A stretch of 64,000 nt of DNA from Escherichia coli (GTDB taxonomy: Bacteria > Pseudomonadota > Gammaproteobacteria > Enterobacterales > Enterobacteriaceae), in the NCBI RefSeq assembly GCF_030013205.1, contig NZ_CP122648.1, one strand, 5' to 3'. The translations under genes were made by a program, and so were the position numbers. How positions within the stretch are numbered: the stretch's first letter is position 1; each line of letters starts with the position of its first letter. Below are positions 41,867 to 60,237 of the stretch, one piece after another. The notes beneath the pieces are model-generated. The model was not told the origin of the DNA, made no database searches, and worked only from the letters and a program-made list of their open reading frames with translations.

Positions 41867-41917
41867 TTTAAATACACGCGCTTTCCGGCGCATTAATACA
41901 GTCTGAGGGGAAGTGTC

Positions 41918-42445: not shown

Positions 42446-42451
42446 CCTCAA

Positions 42452-42732: not shown

Positions 42733-42739
42733 GTAAACC

Positions 42740-42919
42740 ATGACCATCACCGAAGCCGATTTGCTGGAGATGATCCGCAGCATTGCCGGAATCAAACAAC
42801 CAGCAAGCAAAATTAACAGGTGTTCAGCGCCTGTTTCCGTTGTGCTGCAGCAGGAACGCCACCAGCATGATGATGTGAGGCCGTATCAGTGGCGGAAACC
42901 GGACAGGCCGCGACGGTGA
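42740..42919 (+). CDS. hypothetical small ORF (59 aa)
   Basis: ATG after an AAGGTG RBS just downstream of the repeat array; below the ORF-track size cutoff. Confidence 0.3.
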   Translation: MTITEADLLEMIRSIAGIKQPASKINRCSAPVSVVLQQERHQHDDVRPYQWRKPDRPRR

Positions 42920-43385
42920 GCGGAACGTTCGGTAAGGCTACAGCCAAGCCAAACATTAAGCCTACGGGTAACCCTTCGAAGGGGCTTTAAAGGGGAGATG
43001 ATTATCCTTACCAGTTGATAAACAAGCAAACCTCAAATTTGAGGTTTGTATCTGCCTGACTTATTTTTGTGCTAAGTTGTTGATATATCCGACGACACAA
43101 ATTTGCGTTCTGTGGCTGGTGGTGGCGAGTTACGACCGATCATTTCCTTCCTGGCAGGTTACATCCTGCTGCTCAACTACTACGGTAGCCACTACGATTA
43201 ACTACGCGATGCCGATATGGGGATTCCCATATCGGTTTATCCGTGATCATCCACCAGCTTGATCACGGTTAACAGGGGATGTGTAATCCCCAAGCGAGTG
43301 ATAAATGTGTATAGAAATGTGTATAGAATTTATTTTAGAACTCGCGAATGCGCCTTTATTACTGGCCTTGTGGCTTGTTGTATTG

Positions 43386-43403
43386 TTCCCTTCGCCCGCT
43401 CCA
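43386..43403 (+). repeat. att direct repeat (18-bp copy of the glyU 3' end) at the island 1 / island 2 junction
   Basis: TTCCCTTCGCCCGCTCCA is identical to tRNA positions 29148-29165. Confidence 0.85.
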
Positions 43404-43900
43404 GAATCTCCCCAGGTGGAGAAGACTAAAAAAGTCTTCTCTGTCAGCAACTTAAACAGTTACCTATTTAATTTGCTTAGGAGTTCTACCATTGTGATCC
43501 GCCCTTAGTAACTGTCACGTTAAGTTACTCGGTGAGATGACAGTATAACCTAACGTTGGCGGCAGTTGCACCTCTCACACCGCGATAGCACAACGTGAAG
43601 ATAAAGCCCATCCTGGCATTGTAATGTCATCGACAGACTGAACACACGCATTTAAGCCCGATGTGCGGCCTTGTGGCTGCGTAAACAGGTTTATGGTGAT
43701 ATTGGTCCTTGCAAACCATATGCAAGCTCTATCAGCGTTTCAGCCACGCTCCCAACGGGTACACGGTTATCCTGATAAGGTGTGATCTTTCTGACAATCT
43801 GATGAAGTCGCTACGCTCCCGCTTGTTGCTGTATCACCAACGGGGCTTTATGGTTTCTATTGTCTATAATAATCTCACAATTCCCCTGCATGAGGTTGAT

Positions 43901-44107
43901 ATGACTGTTAGCTACAAGATTACTTATGAGCATAGAGACGGTGATCAAATTAGAATGGAAGAGGTTTTATTCCATTCAGAGCATGAACCAACAAAAGATG
44001 AAATTCATGATGCAGTAAGAAAAGATACTGTGAGATTTAATTCTCCATCTAATGGAGTAACGGCTGTTTCAGGGTTTAAAGTGATTTCGGTTGTCCCTGT
44101 TCCATGA
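43901..44107 (+). CDS. hypothetical small protein (68 aa)
   Basis: ATG at 43901 after a GAGG RBS; ORF track lists a longer 43709..44107 frame. Confidence 0.5.
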   Translation: MTVSYKITYEHRDGDQIRMEEVLFHSEHEPTKDEIHDAVRKDTVRFNSPSNGVTAVSGFKVISVVPVP

Positions 44108-44140
44108 ATGGTTATAGAAGGGGCTGGAAGCCCCTAATTA

Positions 44141-44461
44141 TTACTTCTTAATATCGCCAGTGCATTGATATTCGATAGTCACAAGTGTTTGCATACAACC
44201 AGATGAAGAAGGTTGTGAACATTGAGAAGTGAATCCACCAAAAGGCTCGGCTCCTGAATATCCCCAAGCGGCACAACGCGCTTTGGCTGCATTCATGCCT
44301 TGTTGTGGATCTACAACAGGACTTTCAAACATACCGTAAGAATAACTCATCCTAACTGTGCCGTCTGATTTGCTTCCACCAGTTGGAACGAGTTGTTTTT
44401 TTGTTGCACATCCAGAAATAATCAATGTTGAAGCAAGTAACAGCATTAAACTTTTGCGCAT
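44141..44461 (-). CDS. small lipoprotein (106 aa), Cys-rich
   Basis: Signal peptide with lipobox LIISGC; convergent with the upstream gene across a GGGGCT-GGA-AGCCCC hairpin (44117-44131). Confidence 0.7.
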   Translation of the reverse strand: MRKSLMLLLASTLIISGCATKKQLVPTGGSKSDGTVRMSYSYGMFESPVVDPQQGMNAAKARCAAWGYSGAEPFGGFTSQCSQPSSSGCMQTLVTIEYQCTGDIKK

Positions 44462-45113
44462 GTAAATAATCCCAAGAGATAATGGTTATGTATTGATTTA
44501 AAGCGTTTTTAGATTAATGCATTAACTTAGCAAAATTAAGTCTTTTCTGATTGTTTGCAGAGTAAAAATGAGTTGCTTTCGAAATTATTTCGGATGTTTA
44601 TTGTATTACGGTTTTTCAAACCGTCTAACTATTGTCGCTATTGAATGGGCAATAATAGCAAGAGGATTCATTTCGTCATTGGAGGCAACAAAAAGTCGGT
44701 AACTGATAGCTACAACGAATGAAACAATAACGAGAAAGCGGATAGTGCTAAGATGTTTTGAAGATAAATGCATAACGCCCCCTAAATGAATGTGAGGGGG
44801 ATTAAATCATGCAAATTTGTTGTGTGCAATACTGGTAATTTATCCTAATAGTCTACTATTCACCTCAATCTACGTCAACCAATATTTGATGTAGATTTGA
44901 TTTTCTTTTAAAAACAATATGTTGCAATTTGTTGGGTTTTGGGGTTAGGTTGTTTTTTGGACGTTTCCATCAAGTGTAAAGATACGTTTAGCCTTCATAG
45001 TGAGTTCAGTTACTGTCTTTTTCTCTGAAATCGGCGCATACGTGATCATCGCTTAACGAGAAGATCAGCGCCGTCAGGTCCATGCAGCGACAATTCTGAA
45101 ATATCAGGAGGCA

Positions 45114-45665
45114 TTACGCTTCCTGCTCTTTCTTGATACGTTGCACCGTCTGTGTGCTGACACTGAAATCTTTTGCTACGCTCCGAATTGATCCACCATT
45201 CGCGAGAGCGGCAACAATTCCCGCTCGATCAATTGCTTTTCCATTACCACGTTTTGCTATACGCCCAGCTGCCTTAGCTGCGGCGATCCCTTCACGTTGA
45301 CGCTCAAGCATCATTTCACGTTCCATTTGTGCCACTGCTGCAAGCACTGTGAGCATCATATTCCCTGCGGGAGAGTTCTTCCCTGTCTTAAAGTCTTCTT
45401 TATGGAAATGCACAGACACGCCGCGCTCTGTTAATTGCTCAACCGTTGCCAGAAGGTCGGCTGTATTACGGCAAAGGCGATCAATACTGTGAACATGCAA
45501 AACATCACCTTCCCGCACATAGTTCATCATTGCCTCAAACTGTGGGCGCTGGGTATTCTTGCCTGACGCTTTATCTTCAAAGACTTTATCAAGAGCTACT
45601 CCAGCTAATTGACGGTCTGTGTTTTGTTGCACAGTCGATACCCTAATGTATCCAATATTAGCCAT
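45114..45665 (-). CDS. serine recombinase (resolvase/invertase family)
   Basis: 183-aa ORF; N-terminal IGYIRVSTVQQ with catalytic Ser; C-terminal HTH (SIRSVAKDFSVSTQTVQRI). Confidence 0.85.
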   Translation of the reverse strand: MANIGYIRVSTVQQNTDRQLAGVALDKVFEDKASGKNTQRPQFEAMMNYVREGDVLHVHSIDRLCRNTADLLATVEQLTERGVSVHFHKEDFKTGKNSPAGNMMLTVLAAVAQMEREMMLERQREGIAAAKAAGRIAKRGNGKAIDRAGIVAALANGGSIRSVAKDFSVSTQTVQRIKKEQEA

Positions 45666-46166
45666 TTTCTTTATTCCTTCTGTGTTGATTTGTGTGTAGT
45701 GATTATTGATCGTGTTGATTAGGTGTGTAAAGGACTTTTTTCACTACGAAATTCGAAGGTTTTTAGTGTGGTGATTTAGCCTGCTTTATCACTACACGTC
45801 TTGCATGAGAATCATGTAGTTACGTTTTGGTAAAATTAGCAAGCTATTAAATAGTGTGTTTATTTTGAAAAAATAATTTTTTGTTGCATTAAAGAAAACT
45901 TGTTCGACAAATAATAGATTGATTTTTAATCAATAATTTCTGATAGTGCTCTGTAAGCCGCATTACACAAGGCTTTGCGAAAGTGATGTAAAAGTGAAGA
46001 AAGTAAGAATTGCACTTTTAAGCTACTTTTCATTGAATTTTTAGTATGGAATTACACAGGGATTAATCATCAATTACATTGAATTTAAGCCTGTTTTAGA
46101 TGTTTAATTTTGGTAGCAAGAAACACTTTTAGAAGATCATTGCACAGATGTTATGTGATAAATGGA

Positions 46167-46325
46167 TGTAACGATGGGTTACATTCAGCTATCTGAAATA
46201 CTCTCTGTAAGAAATTTGGTAGTAACGATTCGTTACATAGACTAATTATTGAATGTAACGATATTACACATCGGTAGTAACGATACGTTACATCGGCAGA
46301 TGATTGGTTGTAACGAAAGGTTACA
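46167..46325. repeat. five palindromic sites TGTAAC-n5-GTTACA (and GTAACGA-n-TCGTTAC variants)
   Basis: Sites at 46167-46183, 46223-46237, 46254-46268, 46276-46290, 46309-46325 inside a 1.7-kb non-coding AT-rich region. Confidence 0.75.
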
Positions 46326-47357
46326 CAATAAGACTAACATCTATAATACTAATAATAAAACTAACTATTAAACTATATAATATAATTCTTTTTTATCTTT
46401 ATAAGAATAATTATAGGGATACCCGTTAGGGAGTCTAACGACTATCCCTTAATCTATTGGCATTCGCCAGAACCTTGCACAAGTTAGAGTGTTAGTCGTT
46501 AGACTGCTTGTCATAACACATAGTTTTTGTTTGTTGATGTTAGTTAGTAGATCTATGTTCGCTTTCCGCTCACAACGAATATGTAATCTACTATGTGCAA
46601 ATAGCCTACGGCTTGCGTAAGGCTAAATAGTCTTGCGCTGTGCGCAGAACGATAATTAACTAACTACCATCTAACGATCATCAATCATCTAAAATAAATT
46701 TCTTGTGCAATGTTCTTGCGAATGCAATTAGGGTAGCGTTACCCCTTTGGGGATGCTAACGCATAACTATAGATCAACCATCAAACAGACAAAAAAGAAA
46801 AATATGGTTTAAAGATGTTAGGTAGTAGATGAGTTTCTACCGCTTAAATCAAGCCGTAGGCGAGCTAAACGTATATAAGGTAGGGAAACACTTAGCGGTA
46901 ATAGATTAGCTCGTTATAGAGATTCTGAGGAGCTTTACAGGTATTTTATAAGGTGTCTGAAATTAGATTTTATCTACCATCACCTTTTCATATACCTAAC
47001 AAATACAAAATAAGCACCTTAAATAAGCCTCTGGCGAGCTAAACGGTCATTACATAAGGGAATGTATTGTTTTTATCAAAACCTCGTTAGAACGCGTTTT
47101 AGAGCGTTATTAGACAATAATGAAGAATAGCACTACACAGGAGAGCACGAATTGCTAAGACAAATTATAAATTGCTGAAATAGATCGGATTTTTTGCAAA
47201 ATGGTATTGACAAATGTCTCTTTCTGTGCAATAATAGGTATTAGAGGGACAGAAAACATTCTTATCCTCTAAGTAATTAAACCAATGCACCGCACTTTGA
47301 GCCGTCAGGCTGCAAGGTGTCTTTTTCTTTTAACCAAATAGAATAGGAGGTTAATTA

Positions 47358-47540
47358 ATGAAATATTTCACTCCACAGGATGTAGTAGAAGCCTGGAAAC
47401 GTGGTGAGATCAATCGTTTTAAAGTAAGGATGAACAGGAACACAGCGCGACGCTGTGGTTATCCAGAGCGTGAAAAATGTTTTGACGATGCACTAAAAAT
47501 TATTGATGAACTGCGTAAGGCAGAAGTAGAGAAAGAATAA
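47358..47540 (+). CDS. hypothetical small protein (60 aa)
   Basis: Strong AGGAGG RBS; ORF track. Confidence 0.65.
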   Translation: MKYFTPQDVVEAWKRGEINRFKVRMNRNTARRCGYPEREKCFDDALKIIDELRKAEVEKE

Positions 47541-47561
47541 TAACAGGAGAAGGAGAAAACT

Positions 47562-47729
47562 ATGAGCGAAACTAAGAAACCAATTCCGCGCACTTACCTA
47601 CACGTTGACCCTGAAATCTTCAAGGTTTTATTTGCTGAAGCCAAGAAAAGGCAAATTATGGTCAGTGATTTGATGTTAGAAATCATTACTGAAGCAGCAG
47701 AGAACATCAAACAAAAAAAGGGTAAGTGA
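47562..47729 (+). CDS. ribbon-helix-helix-like small protein (55 aa)
   Basis: Manual translation MSETKKPIPRTYLHVDPEIFKVLFAEAKKRQIMVSDLMLEIITEAAENIKQKKGK; GGAGAAGGAG RBS; below the ORF-track cutoff. Confidence 0.55.
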   Translation: MSETKKPIPRTYLHVDPEIFKVLFAEAKKRQIMVSDLMLEIITEAAENIKQKKGK

Positions 47730-47782
47730 TCCTCATTCACTTTAGTAGCGCATTAAGCGTGATTTATAAGGAGATAATTCTA

Positions 47783-48463
47783 ATGTCTAAAATTAAATTG
47801 ATTCGTGAAAAATACCAGTATGTTGATAAACAAACAGGAGAAATTAAAGACAGAACTTTGAATATACCACACTACTTTTGTGAGATTGAATTCATCTACT
47901 CCTCAAATATTGAGGATGGAAAAGCGAAGTTTAGTGCAGAAATGCAAAAATTATATTGCTATGTTTCAGATTGGGAGAAATCAGGGGGGATATGTTTTGA
48001 AACACAAACGAAGTTAAGTAAAGTTTGTGGCTGTAGCCGTAAGACAGTTAATGAATTGATTGGTCTTATGATTAAAATCGGTCTTTTAGAAGAGGTCGGA
48101 GAACGAATCCCAAAACGTCCTTTAAAATTACGTGCGCTACTTCTCACAGATGCACATATTACTCCCCCTGGAGAATCATCACTACCTGATCCTTCTGAGA
48201 AAGAAGACGAATCTAATGAAATATTGAATGTTTCCGAAATCATCCTTGAAGAAGAAACACAAGAGCCAGAGTTCCCTGAGCGGCCCGAAATTTTTACTTG
48301 GCTTCTTTCCCTTGATAAGAAGAAACCACCGCACGAAGAAACAGAAGATTTTGTAAAACGTGCATTAGATTCAAAGAATATCTATCTTGAGAAACAGGCT
48401 TTTCACGATCTGATAATATCTCTAAGAGAAAAAAGTGAAATATACGATTCAATACCATTCTAA
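47783..48463 (+). CDS. winged-HTH protein (226 aa), possible replication initiator or regulator
   Basis: AAGGAG RBS; HTH-like TQTKLSKVCGCSRKTVNELIGLMIKIGLLEE; acidic C-terminal half. Confidence 0.65.
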   Translation: MSKIKLIREKYQYVDKQTGEIKDRTLNIPHYFCEIEFIYSSNIEDGKAKFSAEMQKLYCYVSDWEKSGGICFETQTKLSKVCGCSRKTVNELIGLMIKIGLLEEVGERIPKRPLKLRALLLTDAHITPPGESSLPDPSEKEDESNEILNVSEIILEEETQEPEFPERPEIFTWLLSLDKKKPPHEETEDFVKRALDSKNIYLEKQAFHDLIISLREKSEIYDSIPF

Positions 48464-48472
48464 GGAGAATAA

Positions 48473-48742
48473 ATGACTTATAACATCACTATAGGAAACA
48501 AAACTATTGAAATAACTGAAAGCGGATACAACATTTTAAAAGCTATTTTGGAAATAGAGTTCTCACCGCCGACAGTGGTTAGCTTTTGTAGTTTAGGCGG
48601 CTACAGCGCACAACACGTGAATCATTGGTTAAACCATTTTACATCGTTCGGTGTGCTGGATTATGAAGGGATTAACAGCACTACATTTCGTCTTTTGAAA
48701 TTAAACAAAGATTTTGAATTGTTTATCACAAACAATCAATAA
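48473..48742 (+). CDS. hypothetical protein (89 aa)
   Basis: AAGGAG RBS; ORF track. Confidence 0.6.
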   Translation: MTYNITIGNKTIEITESGYNILKAILEIEFSPPTVVSFCSLGGYSAQHVNHWLNHFTSFGVLDYEGINSTTFRLLKLNKDFELFITNNQ

Positions 48743-48838
48743 CAACAGATCGGGCAATACATATGGCAAATGCATTTATGGCGATATTCATTGTAACAAT
48801 GGTATCAAGTTTTTATAATCCACATAAAAAGAGGGAAA

Positions 48839-49222
48839 ATGGGAAGAAAGAAAAAGAACAACTTAAAACGTATTGAAAAAAACAGTAACTTCAATTCAAC
48901 AAGACAACGTCCACCGACACACACCAATAACGAAATTCCAGGGGAAGAGATAATATTTATTCTTGAAACAGAATCCCCTGAATTAAGCGATGAAGAATTA
49001 GAAATAATCCAGTCAATGCCAGGCGTTTACTTTCGCCCAAGAACAAGAAAACAAACTATCATTTCTGATGGCACTCTGAAACGTTGGCAGCTTTTAGGGT
49101 TTAGCTCCTATCATCATTTTTTGGGATTTAACGCTTTCAATAATTGTGTAGGTGGTGCATCGGAAGTCGATCTGATGGCTCATTTAGAAGATACATTAGC
49201 TTCTAACAAACGTTCTAACTAA
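48839..49222 (+). CDS. hypothetical protein (127 aa)
   Basis: AGAGGG RBS; ORF track. Confidence 0.6.
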   Translation: MGRKKKNNLKRIEKNSNFNSTRQRPPTHTNNEIPGEEIIFILETESPELSDEELEIIQSMPGVYFRPRTRKQTIISDGTLKRWQLLGFSSYHHFLGFNAFNNCVGGASEVDLMAHLEDTLASNKRSN

Positions 49223-49237
49223 TAAAATGATGGGAGT

Positions 49238-49510
49238 ATGTATAAGCGCCCAATGAAAATAATCGAAAAAGGAAAAATAATGATTAACTATCAACTATTA
49301 GAAACAACATTTTTTAAAGAAGCAAAACAACTTGCAGAAGTGTTTATTTCACTGGCTGAACGAGCAAAAGAAGAAAATGATTTTGCCTTGCTTGATGATG
49401 TGCTGGATGACATTGCAACCTATCGTATACCGCTACAGATTGCACTAAACAAGGCTAAACAGATTCAGCAAGAGATGGAATCAGCAGATCAAGGAGAGAT
49501 TGCACAATGA
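49238..49510 (+). CDS. hypothetical protein (90 aa)
   Basis: ORF track; 4-nt overlap with the next gene. Confidence 0.55.
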   Translation: MYKRPMKIIEKGKIMINYQLLETTFFKEAKQLAEVFISLAERAKEENDFALLDDVLDDIATYRIPLQIALNKAKQIQQEMESADQGEIAQ

Positions 49511-49815
49511 CAGACAACATTCTGGAAGTTATGGACACTCTTTCGGATCGGATGATCGCCCTACAGACACGTATCAATCAAGCCTATTCAGATTTATGCG
49601 ATTACACGCTCTCTCAATGCGTTAGTAGCTTAATGAAGGTGAATGTAAGCCTTGACGATTTCATCTCTCTGGTGAGCGATTTAGAGCTATCTAAGGACGA
49701 TGTCAGGCTGTGTACTCAAACCATCACAGACACCGCCAGCACGTTAAAGGCTGCAAGTGAAGAGATTCAGCAATTAGTAGATGATTTAGCAAAAAGTGCT
49801 ATTTTCTCCAAATGA
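49507..49815 (+). CDS. hypothetical protein (102 aa)
   Basis: AAGGAG RBS; ORF track. Confidence 0.6.
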   Translation: MTDNILEVMDTLSDRMIALQTRINQAYSDLCDYTLSQCVSSLMKVNVSLDDFISLVSDLELSKDDVRLCTQTITDTASTLKAASEEIQQLVDDLAKSAIFSK

Positions 49816-50807
49816 TAATGAAAATCATTTGCATTTATAACGATTTCATTATATAATGATATTAGGGGTAGATAAAAAGGTTTTGACTGGTGTTAATCCT
49901 TCTACTGTCATAAATCCCTGCATATGGAAGGTGATAGCCTCAAGGGTTGAGTGGCATTAACCTCTAACAAATATTACCTTCCATCTCTCAAGAAGTTTTA
50001 GAATAATCATAACTCCCTCTTTGATTGTTGATTGTTTCTACGTTGTGTTGATGAATGTTGTTAGGCATTGTGCTTAATTTTGATAAAAGCGGGTAGGTGT
50101 TATCTCCTTGCCCTTCCCGCTCTTATTTTTCATCTATGCTTATCCTAAAGCTCCTTATTTTGTCCGAAAACATTAAAGAGCCTTACACTGATAGTTATAT
50201 TTTATAACTATTTACTAACATCATTAAACTCTTATTTAATGACAGAAGTTAGTAACAGAATAATCTATTAAGTTGTTGTCAAAAAACTATCATCTGCATA
50301 GCGTTAGCCGCAAGTAGAGAGAGTTTAGTTAAGAATGGTGCAATAAACTTTGGAAATATTGATAGCAAAACTAGTTTTATAGAATGCGGATCTATAATCT
50401 TTGGTTGTAAAAACGATTTTCTGAAACGGTAGATTACTGTTGGTGTAGTTAATCCTTATTAAAAATTTAATCTGTGAGTAGATTGGAATAGTGATTCCTT
50501 AAAATCTGACTGGTGCATCCACACCATGAAAGATAGCAGTTGGCCACCGCGCCCCGAATAGATATTCCTGATTGATTCCGCATGTTTTCCTAAGAGCATG
50601 TTTTCAGGAATATCTGTTCACCCTTTAAACCTATCTTTAAGCATGTTTAATAAGCATTCTTAGAGATACGTTTAAAACCTCCTCAAGGTTTTACTTATCG
50701 CTGTGTATTGCCCGACACGTTAATAAATCCCCCTCGCTATTGTCAGATTGAACCTCTTATAGCCTGGGGGATTTATTAAATTCCAGCATAATGGAATCGT
50801 TATATAA

Positions 50808-51017
50808 ATGAAACAAGAAATTATCCTGAAATATGGCAATGAAAAGTTAACACTAACTGAAGATGTGTTGAATGCTACAGCCTACGCGCTTGGCATCACT
50901 CCCACAGAATTAAAGAAACAGTGTGAACGTCTTTATAAGGCTGAAAGCAATAAACCATCTCACCAAGATTTGATTAATGCTAAAGCTCAACAAATCAAAC
51001 AATCTAAGGAAAAATAA
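50808..51017 (+). CDS. hypothetical small protein (69 aa)
   Basis: ORF track; stop overlaps the next start (TAATG). Confidence 0.5.
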   Translation: MKQEIILKYGNEKLTLTEDVLNATAYALGITPTELKKQCERLYKAESNKPSHQDLINAKAQQIKQSKEK

Positions 51018-51391
51018 TGGCTATTTTAAAATTAAGCGATGTTTTCCCACATCGTAAAAGCATCACTGACGTAGTGAGCTATGCAACCGACCCTTACGCG
51101 GCTGTAGAAAGCAAAAAATTTGCAGCACTTGCACAAGATGTAACGTGCGGCGACCTCATTGATTCATCCGGCGCTAAATATGTTAGCGGCGCTGATGTTC
51201 TTGTCGTTGTGTCTGACTTCGTAACTGCTGATTCAAATAAAACAGTTAACGTGCTTCGTGCTAATGCCGGACTCGTTTGCATCAAAGCTGATGCCCTGAA
51301 TGCCGAAGGCGCTGTAAAAGAAGCTGCTATTGCAGCTCTCGCTGCTAAAGGCTTCCAGCTTGAAGGCTTCCACTCTGTTTTCACATCTTAA
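51017..51391 (+). CDS. putative phage head decoration-like protein (124 aa)
   Basis: Position directly upstream of a major-capsid-like gene, as for lambda D/E; the assignment rests on context only. Confidence 0.45.
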   Translation: MAILKLSDVFPHRKSITDVVSYATDPYAAVESKKFAALAQDVTCGDLIDSSGAKYVSGADVLVVVSDFVTADSNKTVNVLRANAGLVCIKADALNAEGAVKEAAIAALAAKGFQLEGFHSVFTS

Positions 51392-51407
51392 GAAGGAATA
51401 AATAATA

Positions 51408-52436
51408 ATGATTATCGGAAATGAAGTGGTTGATCTTGCTCCACTGTTCGAATTAAACGACTCACGCAATTACCTACTGTCTACTCTGGATTTTACTGAT
51501 CCTGTGCCTGTAGAAAGTCACAAAGTGGCTGTTTCCCAGCTTATCGAGAGCAATGAATCTCTGTTCAACCATCCTACAAGCCGTTTTAGCTCTGAGCATA
51601 ACGTTACTAAGCGTGAGAACGGGGAAGAATGGCTGATTGAAATCCCTTACTTCCTGCGTGAAGACCTGATCAAACCGCAGGACGTGCAAGGCAAACGCAA
51701 AGCCGGAAGCTCTATTGAAGAAACACTGCCGGATCTGTATGCGGAATATATCGCTACACACAATGTTGCATTCCAGCGCACTAAAGAAAGCATCCTCGCG
51801 GCTTCTCTGTTCTCTGGCAAGACACATACCCCGAAAACTGACGATGTTCTGATCGACTACAGCACTCTGTTCGGTGTGTCTCCAATGACTGCAACCGTTG
51901 ACGCATCCAGCACCAACACAATGACCGTATTCAAGCAATTTGATCAGATGCATACGGATATGATTGCTAAGGCACAAAGCCAGGCTGCAACCATTGAGCG
52001 TGTTGTTGTGTTCTGTAAACCTGCGGCATTCAACGCTATTCGTTACAGCGTTGGCATGGTTAATGCGTTCCAGTATGCAAGCCCTGTAGACGATGCAAAC
52101 GTGGTGTTTAATGTGCGTTCTCTGCTGCCTGGTGTAACTACTTTCACCATTCCAGGAACTAACATTGACCTGATCAAAGTGACTGATCCGCTGCTGCTGG
52201 CACATATGACCGCTGACGCTGTAGCTATTCCTAAACTTGCTAAGGGGGCAGGTGTTTACCAAGCTATTTTTGGTGCGCCTTCCAGTTCATTCGATCTGCT
52301 GTCTCAAGGCGCTAAAGAGTATTACAGCTATGCTTTCGAATCGAATCGCGGCGACGCAGTGCACGTAGTGACCGAGAATAGCTCGCTTGTGGTTAACCAC
52401 GGTGTTGGCTTCTCTGTGCAGATCACAGTAGCGTAA
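51408..52436 (+). CDS. putative phage major capsid protein, lambda E-like
   Basis: 342 aa (lambda gpE is 341 aa); C-terminus ...GVGFSVQITVA resembles the gpE C-terminus ...DEFVSVQLA; N-terminal DLAPLFEL region. Confidence 0.5.
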   Translation: MIIGNEVVDLAPLFELNDSRNYLLSTLDFTDPVPVESHKVAVSQLIESNESLFNHPTSRFSSEHNVTKRENGEEWLIEIPYFLREDLIKPQDVQGKRKAGSSIEETLPDLYAEYIATHNVAFQRTKESILAASLFSGKTHTPKTDDVLIDYSTLFGVSPMTATVDASSTNTMTVFKQFDQMHTDMIAKAQSQAATIERVVVFCKPAAFNAIRYSVGMVNAFQYASPVDDANVVFNVRSLLPGVTTFTIPGTNIDLIKVTDPLLLAHMTADAVAIPKLAKGAGVYQAIFGAPSSSFDLLSQGAKEYYSYAFESNRGDAVHVVTENSSLVVNHGVGFSVQITVA

Positions 52437-52590
52437 AAAGTGTTAAAGACGTTCCCCTACGTCTGGAAATAATCGGGGCAATAAGGGTAAGGGATAATCA
52501 TATAAGCAAAATATGCGCTGTCTCTTGCACTTTTTGTTTTTCTACTGTCTACAAACCCAAATAAAAATATATATATGTGAGAGAAAACCA

Positions 52591-52788
52591 ATGAATACAG
52601 AAAATTCACAGGCATTAATTCTTAAATCTGTAAAAGAACTGGCAGCTATTAGCGATGACTCAATAATCAATGTCAGTGCCTTATGCAGAATGCTTTCAAT
52701 TGATGCAAATAATGTGCGGCAGCGTGTGTTTCAGACTGGATGCAGCACTTTTGAAGCAATTACATACTACTGTTCTAAAAAACAATAA
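52591..52788 (+). CDS. hypothetical small protein (65 aa)
   Basis: ATG at 52591 within the ORF-track frame 52513..52788. Confidence 0.45.
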   Translation: MNTENSQALILKSVKELAAISDDSIINVSALCRMLSIDANNVRQRVFQTGCSTFEAITYYCSKKQ

Positions 52789-52822
52789 TAAACAACAATC
52801 ATAATACAGGGAAACAATTAAC

Positions 52823-54646
52823 ATGTTAGAGCTAAACATCAGCCGCTTGTCAAACGTTGTCACCTTCGAAGTTAACCGACCATCATTAGAGAAAGCAAAA
52901 GCAGAAGTAGAAAAACTTCGTAAACAAATGGCGGCGGTGAAAGATATAGAATTGCGTGTTAAGACACATAAACAATCAACCGCTAGAGCAAAAAAAGACG
53001 TAGACGATATTGCTAAAAAGCAAGCACAGGCTGATAAAGCTAATGCTAAAGCACAATTAGCCGCTCAACGTGTAGTTGCAAGAGAACAAAAAGCCCTGGC
53101 AGCACGCAAAGAGAAGGCAGAATTAAAGCTTTTAGACGTTGGATCAAGCATTAGTGCAATGCACCGTCTTTCTGTAGCGGAACAATATAAAGCTATTGCA
53201 CAGGCTAGAGAAATTGCCCTCCAATATGAAAGAGGCGCTATTAGTCTGGCACGTATGAATAGCCAAATGAAACGCCTACAACAGCAACAACGTAAGATTA
53301 ATGGCAATCGTAACGCTCACGCTAAAGCCTATGCACCTGTTAAGGGTAGCGGGAGTATTGGCGGCGGTGCTGCGGCTGTTATGCTGGGTGGCTTAGGCGC
53401 TGGCGCTACGTATATGGCTATGAGCAAAGCCTCTGAATTTATGGCTAATAGCTTTGCGAATGCTGAAACAGAAGGGGAATTAATCCAACGTGCAAGGCTT
53501 GGTGGAGTTGATTACAACTTACTTAATAATCTTGAGCGTTGGGCTTACGATAACGGGATCGATAGCCTCCAGGGTGATCAGGGACGCAGAAAAATACTAG
53601 ATGCCATCGGTAAAGATGTGCGTGAACGTGCAACCAAATCTTATGACGAGGCTGAATATGTAGTCGATAAGAAAACAGGGAAAGGCGAATGGAAGGGCGG
53701 CGATAGCGGCATCAATACTTTAATGAATGAAGGATTCCTAACTAAAAAGGATCTAAAAGACTTTGCTGATAATCCGGCTGGTCTGGTTAGTAAAGCAGTT
53801 CAGGGAATGGTAGCTAAAGGCTATTCAGATGCACAAATCGGTAGTCGTCTGGAAGATCTGGCTGATGATTTGATGCTCACCTCTAAATACTGGACACGCT
53901 CCGCTAAAGAAGTGGAACAATCAGCACGAGAACAACGAGAATCAGGGCGCTGGGTAACGCAGGCACAACAGGAAAGCGTTATTAAATTCCGTGAACTGAA
54001 TAATGCACTTAGTGGGCTTTCTGACTCACAAGGGATCGCCTTTGTTGATGGCTTTATGAAATCTCTTGATCCGAAAGTGATTGAAGAGTTTAAAAAGAGC
54101 ATGGTTGCAATGCTGCCAATGTTTACCAAATTAGGCGAGGCTATCGGCGGATTGGTTAACGCTGTAATGAAAGCAATCAACTGGCTGATGAAAAACGACG
54201 AGAAGACGGCAGCTATTCAGAAGAATTTAGGTGATGCACCGCCACTATCTAACGAAGGAATGAAGCAGAATCTTTCTAATCTCACTCCTGATCAATATAA
54301 AGGCGCTGGCACCGGAACAACTAAGCCAGATAACAGCAATTCCCTGGTTAACACTATTAAAAGCTGGTTTATGCCAGAAGAAACGGTAGGTGGGGCGCAG
54401 GCTGTAAATCAATACAGTCTCGAAGGACAAAACATTGCAAATCTGAAACAGAGTGCAGCACAACAAGCTTTCAAGGCTCCTTCTTACACCTTTGCACCTG
54501 TTATTAACTTCAATCCAGAATTACAAGTAAATGCAGAAGTGCCGCTAACTATCGAATCAGACACCGGACGATTGAGCGAATTTATCGACTTCAAATCAAA
54601 GGCATCTTCCGCTGAGTTTAGCAAGCTATTTAGACTGGCCCCCTGA
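52823..54646 (+). CDS. tape-measure-like protein (coiled-coil plus glycine-rich hydrophobic segment); 3' end truncated by IS2
   Basis: 607-aa ORF; N-terminal coiled coil; [25 protein letters not shown]; the last 5 codons and the stop come from the IS2 left end. Confidence 0.6.
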
Positions 54647-54721
54647 ATCTCCAGACAACCAATATCACTTAAATAAGTGATAGTCTTAATACTAGTTTTT
54701 AGACTAGTCATTGGAGAGCAG

Positions 54722-55087
54722 ATGATTGATGTCTTAGGACCGGAGAAACGCAGACGGCGTACTACACAGGAAAAGATCGCTATTGTTCAGCAGAGTTTTG
54801 AACCGGGAATGACGGTCTCCCTTGTTGCCCGGCAACACGGTGTGGCAGCCAGCCAGTTATTTCTCTGGCGCAAGCAATACCAGGAGGGAAGTCTTACTGC
54901 TGTGGCCGCAGGAGAGCAGGTCGTTCCTGCCTCTGAACTTGCTGCTGCCATGAAGCAGATTAAAGAACTCCAGCGCCTGCTCGGCAAAAAAACGATGGAA
55001 AATGAACTCCTTAAAGAAGCCGTTGAATACGGGCGTGCAAAAAAGTGGATAGCGCACGCGCCCTTATTGCCCGGGGATGGGGAGTAA
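54722..55087 (+). CDS. insC: IS2 transposase OrfA (InsC)
   Basis: [41 protein letters not shown]... matches IS2 InsC. Confidence 0.9.
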
Positions 55088-55950
55088 GCTTAGTCAGCCG
55101 TTGTCTCCGGGTGTCGCGTGCGCAGTTGCACGTCATTCTCAGACGAACCGATGACTGGAAAGATGGTCGCCGCAGCCGTCACTCAGATGATACGGATGTG
55201 CTTCTCCGTATACACCATGTTATCGGAGAGCTGCCCACGTATGGTTATCGTCGGGTATGGGCGCTGCTTCGCAGACAGGCCGAACTTGATGGTATGCCTG
55301 CGATCAATGCCAAACGTGTTTACCGGATCATGCGCCAGAATGCGCTGTTGCTTGAGCGAAAAACCGCTGTACCGCCATCGAAACGGGCACATACTGGCAA
55401 AGTGGCCGTGAAAGAAAGCAATCAACGATGGTGCTCTGACGGGTTCGAGTTCCGCTGTGATAACGGAGAAAAACTGCGAGTCACGTTCGCGCTGGACTGC
55501 TGTGACCGTGAGGCACTGCACTGGGCAGTCACTACGGGCGGCTTCGACAGTGAAACAGTACAGGACGTAATGCTGGGAGCGGTGGAACGCCGCTTCGGCA
55601 ACGAGCTTCCGGCGTCTCCAGTAGAGTGGCTGACGGATAATGGTTCATGCTACCGGGCTAATGAAACACGGCAGTTTGCCCGGATGTTGGGGCTTGAACC
55701 GAAGAACACGGCGGTGCGGAGTCCGGAGAGTAACGGCATAGCAGAGAGCTTCGTGAAAACGATAAAGCGTGACTACATCAGTATCATGCCTAAACCAGAC
55801 GGGTTAACGGCAGCAAAGAACCTTGCAGAGGCGTTCGAGCATTATAACGAATGGCATCCGCATAGTGCACTGGGTTATCGCTCGCCACGGGAATATCTGC
55901 GGCAGCAGGCCAGTAATGGGTTAAGTGATAACAGGTGTCTGGAAATATAG
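55045..55950 (+). CDS. insD: IS2 transposase OrfB (InsD), DDE catalytic domain
   Basis: 301-aa ORF overlapping orfA in the -1 frame; IS3-family integrase core. Confidence 0.9.
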
Positions 55951-56050
55951 GGGCAAATCCACTATTAACGCTGGGTGTTATGTCAGGCGGGTCAACCTAT
56001 TAATCATCACTGTGGGGCGGTTTAGCCCCCTTAAATAAGGATTACAAATT

Positions 56051-56728
56051 ATGGCAATGGGTCCGTTAACCATTGGTCGCCCGACTGAGGCGAAAATCAA
56101 CAGCACAAGCAACGATAGCAACGGTAGAACAACCAAAGGGGGTAACGGCTTTGCGATCATTACCTCTAATCTCGGCAGTGGTGCAAATGCTGCTTACAAT
56201 GACTACCAGGCATTATCATTTGATAGCGTGGAATCGACGAAAGTTAGCAGAAATGCGGACGTTACAAGCTATGCCGTCGAATCAGGATCAGAAGTTAGTG
56301 ATCATGTTCAAATACGGAATAACAAGTTCACATTACAAGGGCGTATCTCTGAAACCGTATTGAAGCTCAATCCCGATATGATTAAGAATGCGGGAATTAA
56401 CGGCAATCGACGTATGCTTATGCTTGAATACCTAAATCAGTTGATGGACAGTCGCCAACCTTTCCTACTTGTCACTGAGTTAAAAAATTATGACAACGTT
56501 GTGTTAGTTGGCATGTCTTACGAAGAAGAAGCAAGCGAAAGCCTATTGTTTACTCTTGATTTTGAGCAAATCCGTCTTGTCTCTAAAGCAACTACAAGCG
56601 CAATTGCGGTAAAAACAGCACCAAATAAATCTGTAGGAGGTCAGGTTAAAATGCAGGTAAATACAACAGAACAGAAAAATCAAAAAAGCCCAGGGCAAGA
56701 CGTTGTAACGCCAGTATTTAAACAATAG
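56051..56728 (+). CDS. hypothetical protein (225 aa)
   Basis: AAGGA RBS; ORF track; immediately downstream of the IS2 insertion. Confidence 0.6.
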   Translation: MAMGPLTIGRPTEAKINSTSNDSNGRTTKGGNGFAIITSNLGSGANAAYNDYQALSFDSVESTKVSRNADVTSYAVESGSEVSDHVQIRNNKFTLQGRISETVLKLNPDMIKNAGINGNRRMLMLEYLNQLMDSRQPFLLVTELKNYDNVVLVGMSYEEEASESLLFTLDFEQIRLVSKATTSAIAVKTAPNKSVGGQVKMQVNTTEQKNQKSPGQDVVTPVFKQ

Positions 56729-56821
56729 CCTTAAACACCTATGAAACGCTCTATAACGAGATAATCATAAAAGAGGCATCAATCTATATTGAAGCCTCTT
56801 TATTACGTCTATGGCGTTGTT

Positions 56822-58042
56822 TTACGCCTTAAAATCAATATTTAATTCATATCTTACTAATTCTACATATTCAGCTAATTCTGGAATGCTTGCCCCTTGT
56901 GAGTAGGTGCGAAAGGCTTCTGTTTTGGCTTTTTGCTCAGTGTGGCCCGTAATACTGCCGATCCTGGTCTCGCTAACTCCGGCACGATCAAGACAAGTGA
57001 TAAACATCCCGCGCAAGCTGTGAAAGCATTGTCTATCTGTAGCGATTGGCAAGACGCTACGACGTAAACGTGAGAATGCTTGAGAATAGAACGGGCCTTT
57101 CTTGCCGTCGATTCTTTTTACTTTGTTCGAGTGAGGGAACAAATATTCACCATAATTATGATTTAAATATTCATCGACAATAATCGATAGTCTCGAATGT
57201 ATCGGAACGTGTCTGATCCCTGCTTTAGTCTTACTCTTGCTGATATAAAAACAGCGTATTCCTTCCACAGTTACAACCTCTGACTTTTTCAGGCTTGCCA
57301 GTTCGTCTAATCTGCATCCTGAAAACAAGCCCATTAAAATAATATTTCTGATCTCCGGCTCCGCTGCATCAAGTAGCTTTTGCATTTGTTCAGGTGTAAA
57401 CGGTTGATAACTCTCGATTGTGCGACGTGCTTCGAGGTTATGACCGTGAAAAGGGTTACTGTCTGGTATTCCGTCATAACGGCGTTTAGCAAATTCATAG
57501 AGCGATCCTAAGCATGTAAGCCAGTTTTGACGAGATTGATCGGCTGCTCCTCGTTGCTTCTGGTCATCTAAGAATACTGTTACAAGCCGTCTGCCTATTT
57601 TCTCAATATGAATATCATCTTTCTGAATGCTTTGTAAAAATAGCTCAACGGCCCTTGCTGATTTCTGTAGTGTTGAGTATGAACGACGCTCTCTGTAGCA
57701 TTCGGCGTATTCGTCACGTATTAAGCATAGGGAAGGCGATGCATAACCGCGTTTTACGGCTCTTTGCGTGTTTTTATTGGCCCTTGCCTCTGAATGTAAG
57801 AATTCAATAGCTTTTTGTAACCTCCTTTCGGGGTTATCAGGATTATGTTTCCGCTTTAGTTCCTCCCATTCTAATAACAGATGGTTTCTGAATCTTCTCG
57901 CCTCATTCAGATCTCGTGTAGATGTGCTTTTTCTCCACAACTTGTAAGGGTAAAGATGGCGTAAGTATTTAGGAACAAAAATCTGAAACATCCAGATCCC
58001 ATCTTTTCTCTTAAATAAGTATGCTTGGCTCTTGATCGACAC
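56822..58042 (-). CDS. tyrosine recombinase / phage integrase
   Basis: 406-aa ORF adjacent to att copy 3; C-terminal HSLRG and tyrosine-containing region; different family from the island 1 integrase. Confidence 0.75.
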   Translation of the reverse strand: MSIKSQAYLFKRKDGIWMFQIFVPKYLRHLYPYKLWRKSTSTRDLNEARRFRNHLLLEWEELKRKHNPDNPERRLQKAIEFLHSEARANKNTQRAVKRGYASPSLCLIRDEYAECYRERRSYSTLQKSARAVELFLQSIQKDDIHIEKIGRRLVTVFLDDQKQRGAADQSRQNWLTCLGSLYEFAKRRYDGIPDSNPFHGHNLEARRTIESYQPFTPEQMQKLLDAAEPEIRNIILMGLFSGCRLDELASLKKSEVVTVEGIRCFYISKSKTKAGIRHVPIHSRLSIIVDEYLNHNYGEYLFPHSNKVKRIDGKKGPFYSQAFSRLRRSVLPIATDRQCFHSLRGMFITCLDRAGVSETRIGSITGHTEQKAKTEAFRTYSQGASIPELAEYVELVRYELNIDFKA

Positions 58043-58127
58043 GATAATGATCCTCTATTATCACGTAATCAGTTACCTATGATTGATCACAAAATCTTTA
58101 TTTTACAGCAGGTTATTATGGGTTTCC

Positions 58128-58150
58128 TCGATTCCCTTCGCCCGCTCCAA
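58128..58150 (+). repeat. att direct repeat (23-bp copy of the glyU 3' end) at the distal island boundary
   Basis: TCGATTCCCTTCGCCCGCTCCAA is identical to 29144-29166. Confidence 0.85.
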
Positions 58151-58381
58151 TTTATCTTCACCTCATCAACCTGCCATTTTTGTTGTATCTGATTTTCTAT
58201 ATTATCTTAATTCAATCGCTTCAGACTTTTCGCAATCGCCGTAATACTTCCCCATTTTTTTGTAAATAAAAGCGTTTACGCAATGCAATCCATTTGTAAC
58301 AACCCAGGTAAAATACCTTATTTTCAAGTTGTTAAATAAGTGGTTATCTACGCTTTTAACAAACGATTGATGGAATCTTTT

Positions 58382-59992
58382 ATGAAAGGGAAATCTACAT
58401 TAACTCTTCTGCTCGCTGGTATATTTTCATGCGGCACATGCCAGGCGACAGGGGCAGAAGTGACGAGTGAATCTGTATTTAACATTCTTAATTCCACGGG
58501 GGCAGCAACTGATAAAAGTTATTTATCGTTAAATCCAGATAAGTATCCTAATTATCGTCTTCTGATTCACTCAGCCAAATTAAAAAATGAAATAAAGAGC
58601 CACTATACCAAAGACGAAATTCAAGGATTGTTAACATTAACAGAAAATACACGAAAGTTAACGTTGACGGAGAAACCCTGGGGAACATTTATTCTTGCTT
58701 CTACTTTCGAAGATGACAAAACAGCGGCAGAAACCCACTATGATGCTGTCTGGCTGAGGGATAGTTTATGGGGCTATATGGCATTAGTATCAGATCAAGG
58801 AAATAGTGTAGCCGCAAAAAAGGTTCTGCTCACTCTGTGGGATTATATGTCTACGCCCGACCAGATTAAGCGGATGCAGGACGTCATTAGCAACCCAAAA
58901 CGACTGGATGGTATTCCTGGGCAAATGAATGCTGTGCATATCCGATTTGACAGCAACTCCCCCGTGATGGCAGATGTGCAGGAAGAAGGCAAGCCGCAGC
59001 TGTGGAACCATAAACAAAATGATGCGTTAGGTCTTTATCTTGATCTCCTTATACAAGCAATCGACACTGGTACTATTAACGCTGAAGATTGGCAAAAAGG
59101 TGACCGATTAAAATCGGTTGCGCTGCTGATTGCTTATCTGGATAAAGCCAATTTCTATGTTATGGAAGATTCCGGAGCGTGGGAAGAAGATGCCAGATTA
59201 AACACATCTTCCGTTGCACTGGTGACCTCTGGACTGGAACGTTTGTCGAACTTACTCTCGAAGAAAGACTCTGTTTTTATCTCTGATTTACTGCGCGAAG
59301 CTAAAGCCAATGAACTGGATGAACCTCTTTCAACAACGAGGTTGAACCACCTCATAGATAAAGGTTATGAAAGAATAACGCTACAACTTGATTTAGGGGG
59401 AGAATCCCCAGGTTATCTGGAAAAAGATAAACATTACAGAGAAGCCGATGCGGCTTTACTTAATGTTATTTATCCTGCAAATCTTTCAAAGATAAATACC
59501 AGAAGAAAAGAGCAAGTTCTAAAAATAGTTAAAAAACTAGCAGGTCCGTATGGTATAAAAAGATACGAGAAGGATAATTATCAGTCGGCAAATTTTTGGT
59601 TCAATGATATTAAAACTGATACCGATCAAAATTCACATGCGAAAAGAGAAAAGTGCTTCATTCCATCAACAGAAGCAGAATGGTTTTTTGACTCATGGTA
59701 TGCAAAATCAGCAGCAATTGTTTATAAAGAATCAAGAAAAGAAGAGTATTTGAATGACTCAGTGCAATTTATGAATAGATCATTGGCCCAAATAACAGGC
59801 GAGAATATGATTGGTGCAAATGGCAGGAGCGTACCTGAAATGGCACTTCCCGAAAGCTATAACTATATCCACAAGTCGGGAACTTTGCATGAAGCGCCAA
59901 GCCCTATCATTCCGCTAAATTGGTCGAAAGCTTCAATGACTCTCATGTTGAAAGAGATGTCCAACCTTATCAATGATGAGGGAAATAAATAG
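58382..59992 (+). CDS. glycoside hydrolase family 15-like lipoprotein (ygeQ-like, apparently full length)
   Basis: Signal peptide MKGKSTLTLLLAGIFSCGTCQA; GH15-type SGAWEE catalytic motif; alternative upstream starts at 58340 and 58370. Confidence 0.7.
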   Translation: MKGKSTLTLLLAGIFSCGTCQATGAEVTSESVFNILNSTGAATDKSYLSLNPDKYPNYRLLIHSAKLKNEIKSHYTKDEIQGLLTLTENTRKLTLTEKPWGTFILASTFEDDKTAAETHYDAVWLRDSLWGYMALVSDQGNSVAAKKVLLTLWDYMSTPDQIKRMQDVISNPKRLDGIPGQMNAVHIRFDSNSPVMADVQEEGKPQLWNHKQNDALGLYLDLLIQAIDTGTINAEDWQKGDRLKSVALLIAYLDKANFYVMEDSGAWEEDARLNTSSVALVTSGLERLSNLLSKKDSVFISDLLREAKANELDEPLSTTRLNHLIDKGYERITLQLDLGGESPGYLEKDKHYREADAALLNVIYPANLSKINTRRKEQVLKIVKKLAGPYGIKRYEKDNYQSANFWFNDIKTDTDQNSHAKREKCFIPSTEAEWFFDSWYAKSAAIVYKESRKEEYLNDSVQFMNRSLAQITGENMIGANGRSVPEMALPESYNYIHKSGTLHEAPSPIIPLNWSKASMTLMLKEMSNLINDEGNK

Positions 59993-60000
59993 TTTTCATA

Positions 60001-60237
60001 ATGAGGCGGTCCTGGATTAAAAGGACCGCTCAAAGAGAAATCGTAAGGGAGGTAAAAGTGATCAATAAATTACTGTTAGCTTACCTGATAGGTCTGGTTG
60101 TGACATCGACCTTAATATTTATCTTCTCGGAAGAAAAAGTAACATATCGGTTGTTTGCTGCAGTAATTACAGGGTTGACCTGGCCGCTTAGCCTCATTCC
60201 ATCCATCATAAGTCTCATGATTCGTAAATCCGACTAA
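60001..60237 (+). CDS. small membrane protein (78 aa)
   Basis: ORF track; two predicted hydrophobic helices. Confidence 0.45.
   Translation: MRRSWIKRTAQREIVREVKVINKLLLAYLIGLVVTSTLIFIFSEEKVTYRLFAAVITGLTWPLSLIPSIISLMIRKSD

Follow-up and report, generated by a model that had tools for sequence, protein, structure and literature searches.

A window of 64,000 nt from the Escherichia coli contig NZ_CP122648.1 (all coordinates are positions in this window) carries a block of virion genes on an island, here called E2, which measures 14.7 kb including a copy of the insertion sequence IS2 and 13.4 kb without it. The island encodes a major capsid protein (MCP), a tape-measure protein (TMP) homologue, a tail-tube initiator and probably a head-decoration protein, and it has its own integrase and attachment (att) repeats. 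We hold with high confidence that E2 is a selected, mobile island bearing virion genes. We further consider it probable that the block belongs to a 13.4-kb integrative phage satellite that acts through the mechanism proposed below. The RefSeq annotation of E2 goes no further than 'major capsid protein', 'phage baseplate protein' and hypothetical proteins, and full-text searches aimed at this island family found no description of it.

Head and tail proteins encoded by E2

A first-pass annotation, made from the sequence alone, had placed three genes here, for proteins of 124 and 342 aa and for a tape-measure-like protein (607 aa in the ORF list), and all three are found in the list of open reading frames (ORFs) at the positions given in Table 1. 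It had also noted a resemblance of the 342-aa protein to lambda gpE. The protein matches the lambda gpE family of Pfam (PF03864, Phage_cap_E) over residues 19-341 with E=1.1e-17 (64.6 bits, cut-off 22.9), as well as phrog_29, major head protein. Among solved capsids, its sequence matches those of Pakpunavirus P7-1 (9zbi_A, 4e-10) and phi92 gp124 (21uy_N, 1.2e-8). An AlphaFold model was built with nine divergent homologues in the alignment and reached a predicted local distance difference test score (pLDDT) of 69.8. The structure-based search, set beforehand as the refuting test, found the capsid fold: the model matched the PhiTE capsid with E=9.5e-19 (TM 0.69-0.72) and the lambda capsid (8k39) with E of about 3e-11 (TM 0.59). 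Further Foldseek matches were Bas63, the ICP1 coat protein (8g1r, E=3e-16), Sf14 and YSD1/Chi. These data indicate, from both sequence and model, that the 342-aa product is an HK97-fold MCP. Its N-terminal 30 residues are nearer to phi92 gp124 (11/30) than the protein as a whole (22% overall), a sample too small to carry weight; the gp124-like N-terminus might be the sign of a shared scaffold or portal interface.

The 607-aa product is a tape-measure homologue by sequence, and a role in setting tail length is predicted. It matches phrog_16051, tail length tape measure, with E=1.2e-26, and phi92 gp134 both in the PDB (21vq_V, 1.1e-18) and by BLASTP (1e-24). The pairwise alignment with gp134 runs from end to end, from the N-terminal 33 aa (42% identity) through the C-terminal motif. 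The position of the gene fits as well, the Dit-like gene coming next beyond IS2. The first reading had put the tape-measure gene almost directly after the capsid gene; the homology was borne out, but a 65-aa ORF intervenes, for which no Pfam or PHROG match was obtained. A candidate role for this ORF as a phi92 gp133 homologue or a tail assembly chaperone (TAC) was rejected, as no similarity was found.

In the window, the TMP ORF ends at 54646 because IS2 has inserted in the gene, 36 nt before its end. The last 12 residues (LTLGVMSGGSTY) are swapped for FRLAP, and the C-terminal motif lost in this way (…KLLTLGVMSGGSTY) aligns with the C-terminus of phi92 gp134. Concomitantly, IS2 separates the tube-initiator gene from the operon. 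Among 12 near-identical genomes of porcine enterotoxigenic E. coli (ETEC), the insertion occurs only in ETEC4079, to which the window is 100% identical, and is missing from the 11 others. Other copies of the family bear IS1, IS3 or IS5 in or next to the tube-initiator gene. The intact island TMP has 614 aa and is 45 residues shorter than phi92 gp134 (659 aa), so that, at about 1.5-1.6 Å per residue, a tail shorter by about 7 nm is predicted.

The gene beyond IS2 encodes a 225-aa protein that is, on its sequence, a homologue of phi92 gp135 and a Dit-like tube initiator. It shares 50% identity with gp135 (2e-63), and its PDB matches include gp135 itself (21vq_N, 7e-54), the 'tube initiator protein' of PhiTE (9cuy_K, 3.5e-10) and the 'Pam3 tube initiator' gp17 (7yfz_a). 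Furthermore, ICP1 gp78 (BhuB), whose gene follows the TMP genes of ICP1 directly, is a member of the Pfam family Dit_like (1.2e-17), to which the 225-aa protein and gp135 belong as well. The pairwise BLAST with gp78 was not significant.

The 124-aa product gave no direct match in Pfam, PHROGs or PDB sequences, and BLASTP against phi92 gp123 was not significant. Its structural model has a pLDDT of 69.5, one of the five models being confident. The top eight Foldseek matches of this model in the PDB are all capsid reconstructions, but with E of about 0.6 and TM of about 0.3; the chains matched are 122-150 aa long and come from the capsids of Sf11, Bas63, Sf14 and YSD1. A family profile gathered 47 distant relatives among 1.8 billion representatives, some of which match the head-decoration families phrog_2680 (1.7e-5) and phrog_49 (7.9e-6). 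The first of these families contains phi92 gp123, the decoration protein whose gene precedes the phi92 MCP gene. Alignment of the 124-aa family with gp123 by hhalign gave E=0.002 with a probability of 13%. The profile and fold hints, with the position and size of the gene, suggest that the product is probably a head-decoration protein.

The closest phages are large virulent myoviruses

We searched 50,697 phage records by tblastn. The MCP, TMP and initiator matched large myoviruses only, and the best matches were Stephanstirmvirinae (phi92, phAPEC8 and relatives), which are virulent and have genomes of 145-150 kb. The best identities were 25-26% for the MCP, about 26-31% for the TMP and 50-53% for the initiator; no temperate phage with closer genes was present among these records. 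Synteny with lambdoid phages, a comparison proposed at the outset, was rejected: the best matches of the three genes are all myoviruses of 115-150 kb and not lambdoid, and the likeness to lambda exists at the level of Pfam family and fold only.

In phi92, the order is scaffold gp122, decoration protein gp123 (130 aa), MCP gp124 (333 aa), genes for neck, sheath, tube and chaperone, TMP gp134 and then gp135 (236 aa). E2 keeps gp123-, gp124-, gp134- and gp135-like genes in this order and the intervening genes are missing. The same four functions thus stand in the same order as in phi92 and phAPEC8, with direct homology for three of them; the phages differ in that some 25 other virion genes lie among and beside them, and the versions of E2 are 25-53% identical to theirs and adjoin an integrase. 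When the 134 E2 ORFs of at least 30 aa were compared by tblastn with the 45-kb structural region of phi92, the three known homologues alone were recovered. A phage-specific late promoter common to island and phage was rejected: the T4-type late promoter motif TATAAATA is enriched neither in E2 nor in phi92, and the phi92 structural genes seem to use sigma-70-like promoters.

The distance to the phage proteins bears on the identity of the helper. E2 may be the satellite of a different, so far unsequenced phage, for instance a temperate or medium-sized myovirus, in which case its likeness to phi92 and phAPEC8 would reflect shared ancestry. The low identities of the MCP and TMP favour this explanation, as do the second type of MCP cassette found in the family (see below), which matches Aeromonas myoviruses only, at 25%, and the spread of the structural neighbours over PhiTE, Bas63, ICP1, Sf14 and Chi. 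The initiator, however, argues for the Stephanstirmvirinae, since its best matches are all coliphages of that group. The low identity of the two other proteins is no argument against helpers of the phi92/phAPEC8 type because the proteins of PLE, the satellites of phage ICP1 in Vibrio cholerae, are equally far (20-41%) from those of their proven helper. We consider an unsequenced helper of another kind unlikely.

A bounded island with an incomplete virion module

The last 23 nt of glyU, the gene of tRNA-Gly(ccc), recur at the two att repeats of Table 1, which shows that two islands, E1 and E2, are arranged in tandem at this tRNA gene. Both are inserted between glyU and the GH15 and ETT2 type III secretion genes. 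The probable satellite identity of E2 agrees with the features that satellites have in general, namely genes of their own for integration and replication-type functions, att sites, a tight genome size and an incomplete virion module.

Within E2, ORFs of more than 250 aa encode the MCP, TMP, IS2 transposase and integrase; the one further ORF of this length is an antisense shadow of the MCP gene. The lack of any others excludes genes for a portal, a large terminase, a sheath and baseplate wedges. No ORF of fitting size or similarity was found for a portal, large terminase, sheath or tube in the ORF list, Pfam or PHROGs, and a portal, prohead protease, head-tail connectors and small terminase were not found by Pfam or PHROGs, the longest unassigned ORF being 132 aa. 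The claim that the rest of a virion module is missing was correct for the portal, terminase, protease and tube, and incomplete in that it overlooked the fourth virion gene, that of the initiator. Without portal, terminase, neck, tube, sheath and baseplate genes, the element cannot make particles alone.

The first-pass annotation had offered a capsid-remodelling satellite as one of two readings of the block. The satellite outline was retained, while remodelling fits less well, because E2 has a complete MCP and a probable decoration protein and no scaffold-type remodelling factor. Nor does the TMP stand alone in this module: together with the Dit-like initiator it makes up a tail-core set of two genes, the same pair that PLE substitutes in ICP1 tails.

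Recurrence, selection and exchange of cassettes

The 3.8-kb block was compared by megablast with 5426 complete E. coli genomes. At least part of it is present in 477 of them (up to 9%), with coverage of at least 80% in 33, and the carriers include ETEC, avian pathogenic E. coli (APEC) and O104:H4. Judged by source names, further relatives occur in E. albertii, Pluralibacter and Dryocola. The copies inspected were those of strains MLI023K1, 2013C-3264, O104:H4 2009EL-2071 and 779, an IMG/VR set and a copy of Klebsiella variicola. All have the same gene order (small genes, decoration protein, MCP, 65-aa ORF, TMP, the initiator where present, and integrase), and they sit at glyU or thrW with two types of integrase that are 33% identical. 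The distances from att to att are 12.9, 13.6, 13.4 (E2 after subtraction of IS2), about 12.3 and 13.9 kb.

With the divergent copy of strain 779 as the reference, we computed dN/dS for the four virion genes at dS values of 1.6-2.6, which are saturated. The ratios are 0.15 for the decoration protein, 0.12 for the MCP (dS 1.67), 0.21 for the TMP and 0.14 for the initiator. These values indicate strong purifying selection on both head and tail genes.

In the O104:H4 2009EL-2071 copy, at thrW, the TMP is 95% identical to that of E2 and the decoration protein 24%. The MCP of this copy was not detectable by tblastn from the E2 MCP and has weak matches to Aeromonas myovirus MCPs only, with about 25% identity. 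A near-identical TMP next to a divergent decoration protein and MCP shows that head and tail cassettes recombine independently, and such shuffling between lineages suggests an ongoing arms race. The tube-initiator gene of this copy is split by ISKpn26; the stretch of that locus under discussion is 9489-10918.

The K. variicola relative carries the decoration, MCP, 66-aa and TMP genes together with an integrase. In this relative, an HNH gene and a tyrosine-recombinase fragment replace the serine recombinase. A 13,884-bp Klebsiella contig from a read assembly starts and ends in the att repeat, with a terminal overlap of 17 nt; it was not counted as a circular form because an assembly break at the repeat explains the overlap equally. 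A more distant type of island adjoins trpE/yciO in enterobacterial contigs. There, genes for a 113-aa decoration-like protein and a Phage_cap_E MCP face a divergent operon with a PhiTE-gp211-like gene (PF26210), a 96-aa ORF and a TMP_3 tape measure of 720-725 aa. Small islands that combine an MCP with a TMP are therefore found in more than one lineage, which suggests a wider superfamily of such islands.

The size range bears on whether E2 is packaged. It could instead be a defence-only island, in which the capsid, TMP and initiator homologues are dominant-negative decoys that poison phage assembly and the island, never packaged, spreads by other means. Divergent multimerising structural proteins are plausible assembly poisons, interference with tail assembly is known as a defence from the Tai systems (PMC11364771) and from Rta of PLE11, and a packaging function was not identified in E2 with Pfam and PHROGs. 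However, such a locus would not need the tight 12.3-13.9 kb, which is what a capsid volume predicts, nor does it account for the integrase, att sites and initiator-like gene of the island. The full-length MCP with its decoration protein and the TMP with both termini look built for function, and the equivalent PLE proteins enter infectious particles; the two roles can also coexist. A purely defensive island thus appears quite improbable.

We reject as very improbable indeed the other reading of the first-pass annotation, a decaying prophage, which would be the non-functional rest of a complete phage minus portal, terminase, protease and most tail genes: such a history would agree with the small number of virion genes, 4 where a phi92-type phage has roughly 25, and with the insertion sequences in this and other copies, but the same minimal gene set and order persists across lineages under the selection described above, with intact att repeats and integrase, two integration sites with unrelated integrases and a narrow size range, the closest phages are obligately virulent, and independent deletions would not yield the same 13-kb architecture repeatedly.

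Proposed mechanism

As an integrative satellite, E2 would remain silent at glyU until its cell is infected by a helper, a large virulent myovirus of the phi92/phAPEC8/rV5 type. This infection would lead to excision by the tyrosine integrase, to replication via the winged-helix initiator and the palindrome/AT-rich region, and to expression of the rightward operon. The island MCP and decoration protein would then form, or join, a shell with room for about 13 kb. The resulting capsid may be about 45 nm across and T=4-like, if P4 (11.6 kb, T=4) is taken as a guide. The helper would supply portal, scaffold/protease, terminase and neck, and the TMP and tube initiator of the island would replace gp134 and gp135 of the helper at the core of the helper-built contractile tail, giving a chimeric tail, for which PLE with ICP1 provides an experimental precedent. 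The diversion of helper parts would lower the helper yield, and the island would act as a population-level defence.

More tentatively, and with somewhat less than even confidence, we propose that E2 is the first E. coli counterpart of PLE-ICP1 and represents a widespread, undescribed satellite family of phi92/phAPEC8/rV5-type myoviruses. Its strategy would be a hybrid one not seen before, in which a private capsid shell, made of MCP and decoration protein, is set on the portal and packaging machinery of the helper and is combined with a chimeric tail.

Several points weigh against this mechanism. We infer excision, replication, packaging, induction, helper identity, capsid size, the chimeric tail and interference. 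The identity of the helper is the less certain part, as no sequenced phage has an MCP more than about 25% identical to that of E2. The decoration-protein assignment is weak. Functions of the small-terminase, pac/cos or scaffold type were not identified in E2 with Pfam, PHROGs or PADLOC, eight small ORFs being left without assignment. The five IMG/VR loci give no evidence of encapsidation, since their contigs, at 19-30 kb, all exceed the length of the element. The Klebsiella relative lacks the tube-initiator gene, so this gene is not universal in the family. Finally, the copy in the window has lost the conserved TMP C-terminus, its TMP and initiator genes are separated by IS2, and it is therefore probably impaired for transfer.

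Other genes of E2 and the neighbouring island

From left to right, E2 consists of an accessory stretch, a serine recombinase gene, non-coding DNA, two small ORFs, the initiator-like gene, four small ORFs, an ORF-free stretch of about 1 kb, a 69-aa ORF, the 124-aa gene, the MCP gene, the 65-aa ORF, the TMP gene, IS2, the 225-aa gene and the integrase gene. Table 1 lists these features.

Table 1. Features of island E2 and its surroundings in the window
Feature	Position	Strand	Basis or remark
glyU, tRNA-Gly(ccc)	29082-29155		
Island E1	29157-43404		second, unrelated satellite-like island at glyU, upstream of E2
Direct repeats in E1	36237-36574		just downstream of the E1 primase gene
Left att repeat of E2	43382-43404	+	degenerate 18/23 copy of glyU 3' end; doubles as right end of E1 (repeat search)
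Island E2	43405-58150		14.7 kb including IS2
Small ORF, variable accessory region	43709-44107	+	no PADLOC match
YecR-family lipoprotein gene, accessory region	44141-44461	-	Pfam YecR 1.8e-23
Small serine recombinase, resolvase/invertase type	45114-45665	-	Pfam Resolvase 5.6e-39
Five copies of a 17-nt palindrome of TGTAACG-N3-CGTTACA type within 170 nt, then an AT-rich run	46160-46410		repeat search and direct reading
Two small conserved ORFs (60 and 55 aa), head of rightward operon	47358-47729	+	dN/dS 0.04-0.07
Winged-helix replication-initiator-like gene	47783-48463	+	Pfam HTH_36 1.5e-4; phrog_270 replication initiation protein 4.8e-6
Four small ORFs (89, 127, 76-90, 102 aa)	48473-49815	+	no Pfam, PHROG or PADLOC assignment
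Stretch of about 1 kb without ORF of at least 50 aa	49816-50807		directly upstream of head genes; no Rfam match
69-aa ORF	50808-51017	+	stop overlaps start of next gene (ORF list)
Probable head-decoration protein, 124 aa	51017-51391	+	position and size as phi92 gp123; weak profile and fold hints
MCP, HK97 fold, Phage_cap_E family, 342 aa	51408-52436	+	Pfam, PHROGs, PDB, Foldseek
65-aa ORF between MCP and TMP genes	52591-52788	+	conserved across family
TMP homologue, 607 aa	52823-54646	+	PHROGs, PDB, BLASTP
IS2 insertion	54631-55961	+	5-bp target duplication CTATT
Dit-like tail-tube initiator / inner baseplate protein, 225 aa	56051-56728	+	Pfam PF21821 (Dit_like) 1.2e-27
Tyrosine integrase (DUF6538 + Phage_integrase)	56822-58042	-	Pfam, PHROGs
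Right att repeat of E2	58128-58150	+	23/23 exact copy of glyU 3' end (repeat search)
Genes right of E2	58340-64000		GH15, toxin, HTH-domain and ETT2 genes (see text)

Both accessory genes at the left end are missing from the thrW-integrated relatives (tblastn, 0 matches). The small serine recombinase is 99% conserved in most E. coli relatives, with dN/dS of 0.02-0.03. The palindrome array lies in a 1.7-kb non-coding gap between the serine recombinase gene and the rightward operon. The sequence TGTAACGA occurs seven times in the window against 1.8 expected, and four of the seven occurrences fall within the palindrome/AT-rich region, which is a candidate replication origin, operator array or recombinase site from its sequence. 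A sigma-70-like site with 11/12 matches is found at 47207-47235, in a region that is overall no better than chance.

The initiator-like gene is the most variable core gene among the relatives, with alleles 36-64% identical; the Klebsiella allele is a DUF6945 protein with weak RepA_N similarity. The 127-aa ORF of the following group of four is kept throughout the family. The ORF-free stretch upstream of the head genes is 90-96% conserved among E. coli relatives, and its equivalent in some relatives holds a 119-aa gene on the minus strand. An Rfam scan of E2, including both long non-coding stretches, gave 0 matches, and a PADLOC scan of the unassigned ORFs of E2 gave nothing credible.

The neighbouring island E1 encodes an integrase, an AntA/B antirepressor, an Icd-like protein, a primase and ProQ/FinO, PerC and NUDIX proteins. 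It also encodes a DUF2213 protein matching phrog_530, head maturation protease (5e-5), a 679-aa lytic-transglycosylase protein matching phrog_2276, tape measure (1e-31), and phrog_7182, tail injection transglycosylase (5e-22), and a protein of about 175 aa with a small-terminase-like N-terminus (phrog_57, 5e-7). E1 and E2 are putatively two different satellites in tandem, each with an injection or tape-measure-type protein. The direct repeats of GTAGACAGTTGGTAGACAG in E1, in three copies plus a longer 38-nt pair, look like iterons of an E1 origin. To the right of E2 lie a GH15 glycoside hydrolase gene, a GhoT/OrtT-type toxin ORF, a gene for an HTH-domain protein and the start of ETT2 (SctC secretin).

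Implications and comparison with known satellites

So far, PLE-ICP1 in V. cholerae is the one system in which satellites of a virulent phage have been described in detail, and chimeric satellite tails were first reported in 2025-2026. If the proposed mechanism is true, the same tail-core strategy, together with an MCP of its own, would exist in the most tractable host, and tail manipulation would be general among satellites. E2 would also be a natural experiment in matching a foreign MCP to the portal and scaffold of a helper, and it would be a natural mobile resistance determinant against these lytic coliphages. The likely helpers, the Stephanstirmvirinae, figure in studies of phage biocontrol and therapy, and an island carried by up to 9% of the complete E. 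coli genomes could affect phage efficacy and move genes between strains.

PLE resembles E2 in being a small integrative island with its own pair of TMP and Dit-like BhuB. Its helper is a large virulent myovirus, as we infer for E2. The distances to the phage versions are also similar, about 26-31% (TMP) and 50% (initiator) for E2 against 20% and 41% for PLE. PLE differs in that it has no capsid gene and shrinks the ICP1 coat with an external scaffold, TcaP (8g1r title), whereas E2 has its own MCP. PLE integrates by a large serine recombinase, and E2 has a tyrosine integrase at tRNA genes. PLE has a TAC gene by tmp; in E2 only the 65-aa ORF precedes tmp, and no TAC homologue was detected. The hosts are V. 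cholerae and E. coli, and no sequence relationship of the non-structural genes was detected. All V. cholerae PLEs encode TMP and TAC, and PLE11 also BhuB, with 20%, 20% and 41% identity to ICP1; the virions of PLE11 contain the TMP and BhuB of PLE and exclude the ICP1 versions (PMC11838301, PMC12987554). PLE tails are 10 nm shorter, and deletion of tmp cuts transduction by 96-99.9% (PMC11838301, PMC12987554). A 2026 paper on PLE mentions putative satellites outside the Vibrionaceae with predicted tmp genes, by which cf-PICIs are meant.

The cf-PICIs of Enterobacteria are similar to E2 in size, occur in E. coli and relatives and have their own HK97-fold capsid protein. They differ by their complete head module, with portal, protease, connectors and small terminase, and take only tails from the helper; in E2, by contrast, portal, protease, connectors and terminase are missing and two tail-core genes are present. 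Their helpers are temperate phages of about 40 kb. The EPIPs of Mycolicibacterium aichiense, compared here by description, are 11-kb satellites that are likewise reported to have an MCP and a TMP, and their particles have smaller heads and an altered tail length (10.64898/2025.12.02.691453). In contrast to E2, they code for a serine integrase and, among further head genes, for a scaffold, a small terminase and a head-tail adaptor and stopper; a siphovirus prophage serves as their helper, and their host belongs to an unrelated phylum.

As in SaPIbov5 with Ccm and P4 with Sid, a satellite protein would set a smaller capsid in E2, and Ccm is itself homologous to the helper capsid protein (PMC8569155). 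SaPIbov5 and P4 differ in that a size-determining accessory protein works with the helper coat and no tail proteins are encoded. Matches to P4-type psu, delta and sid and to the alpha primase-helicase were not found in E2 with Pfam and PHROGs; a primase is present in the neighbouring E1 only. By analogy with these systems, E2 would work like a hybrid, taking after PLE in its chimeric tail and virulent myovirus helper and after cf-PICIs and SaPIbov5 in having its own homologue of a capsid protein.

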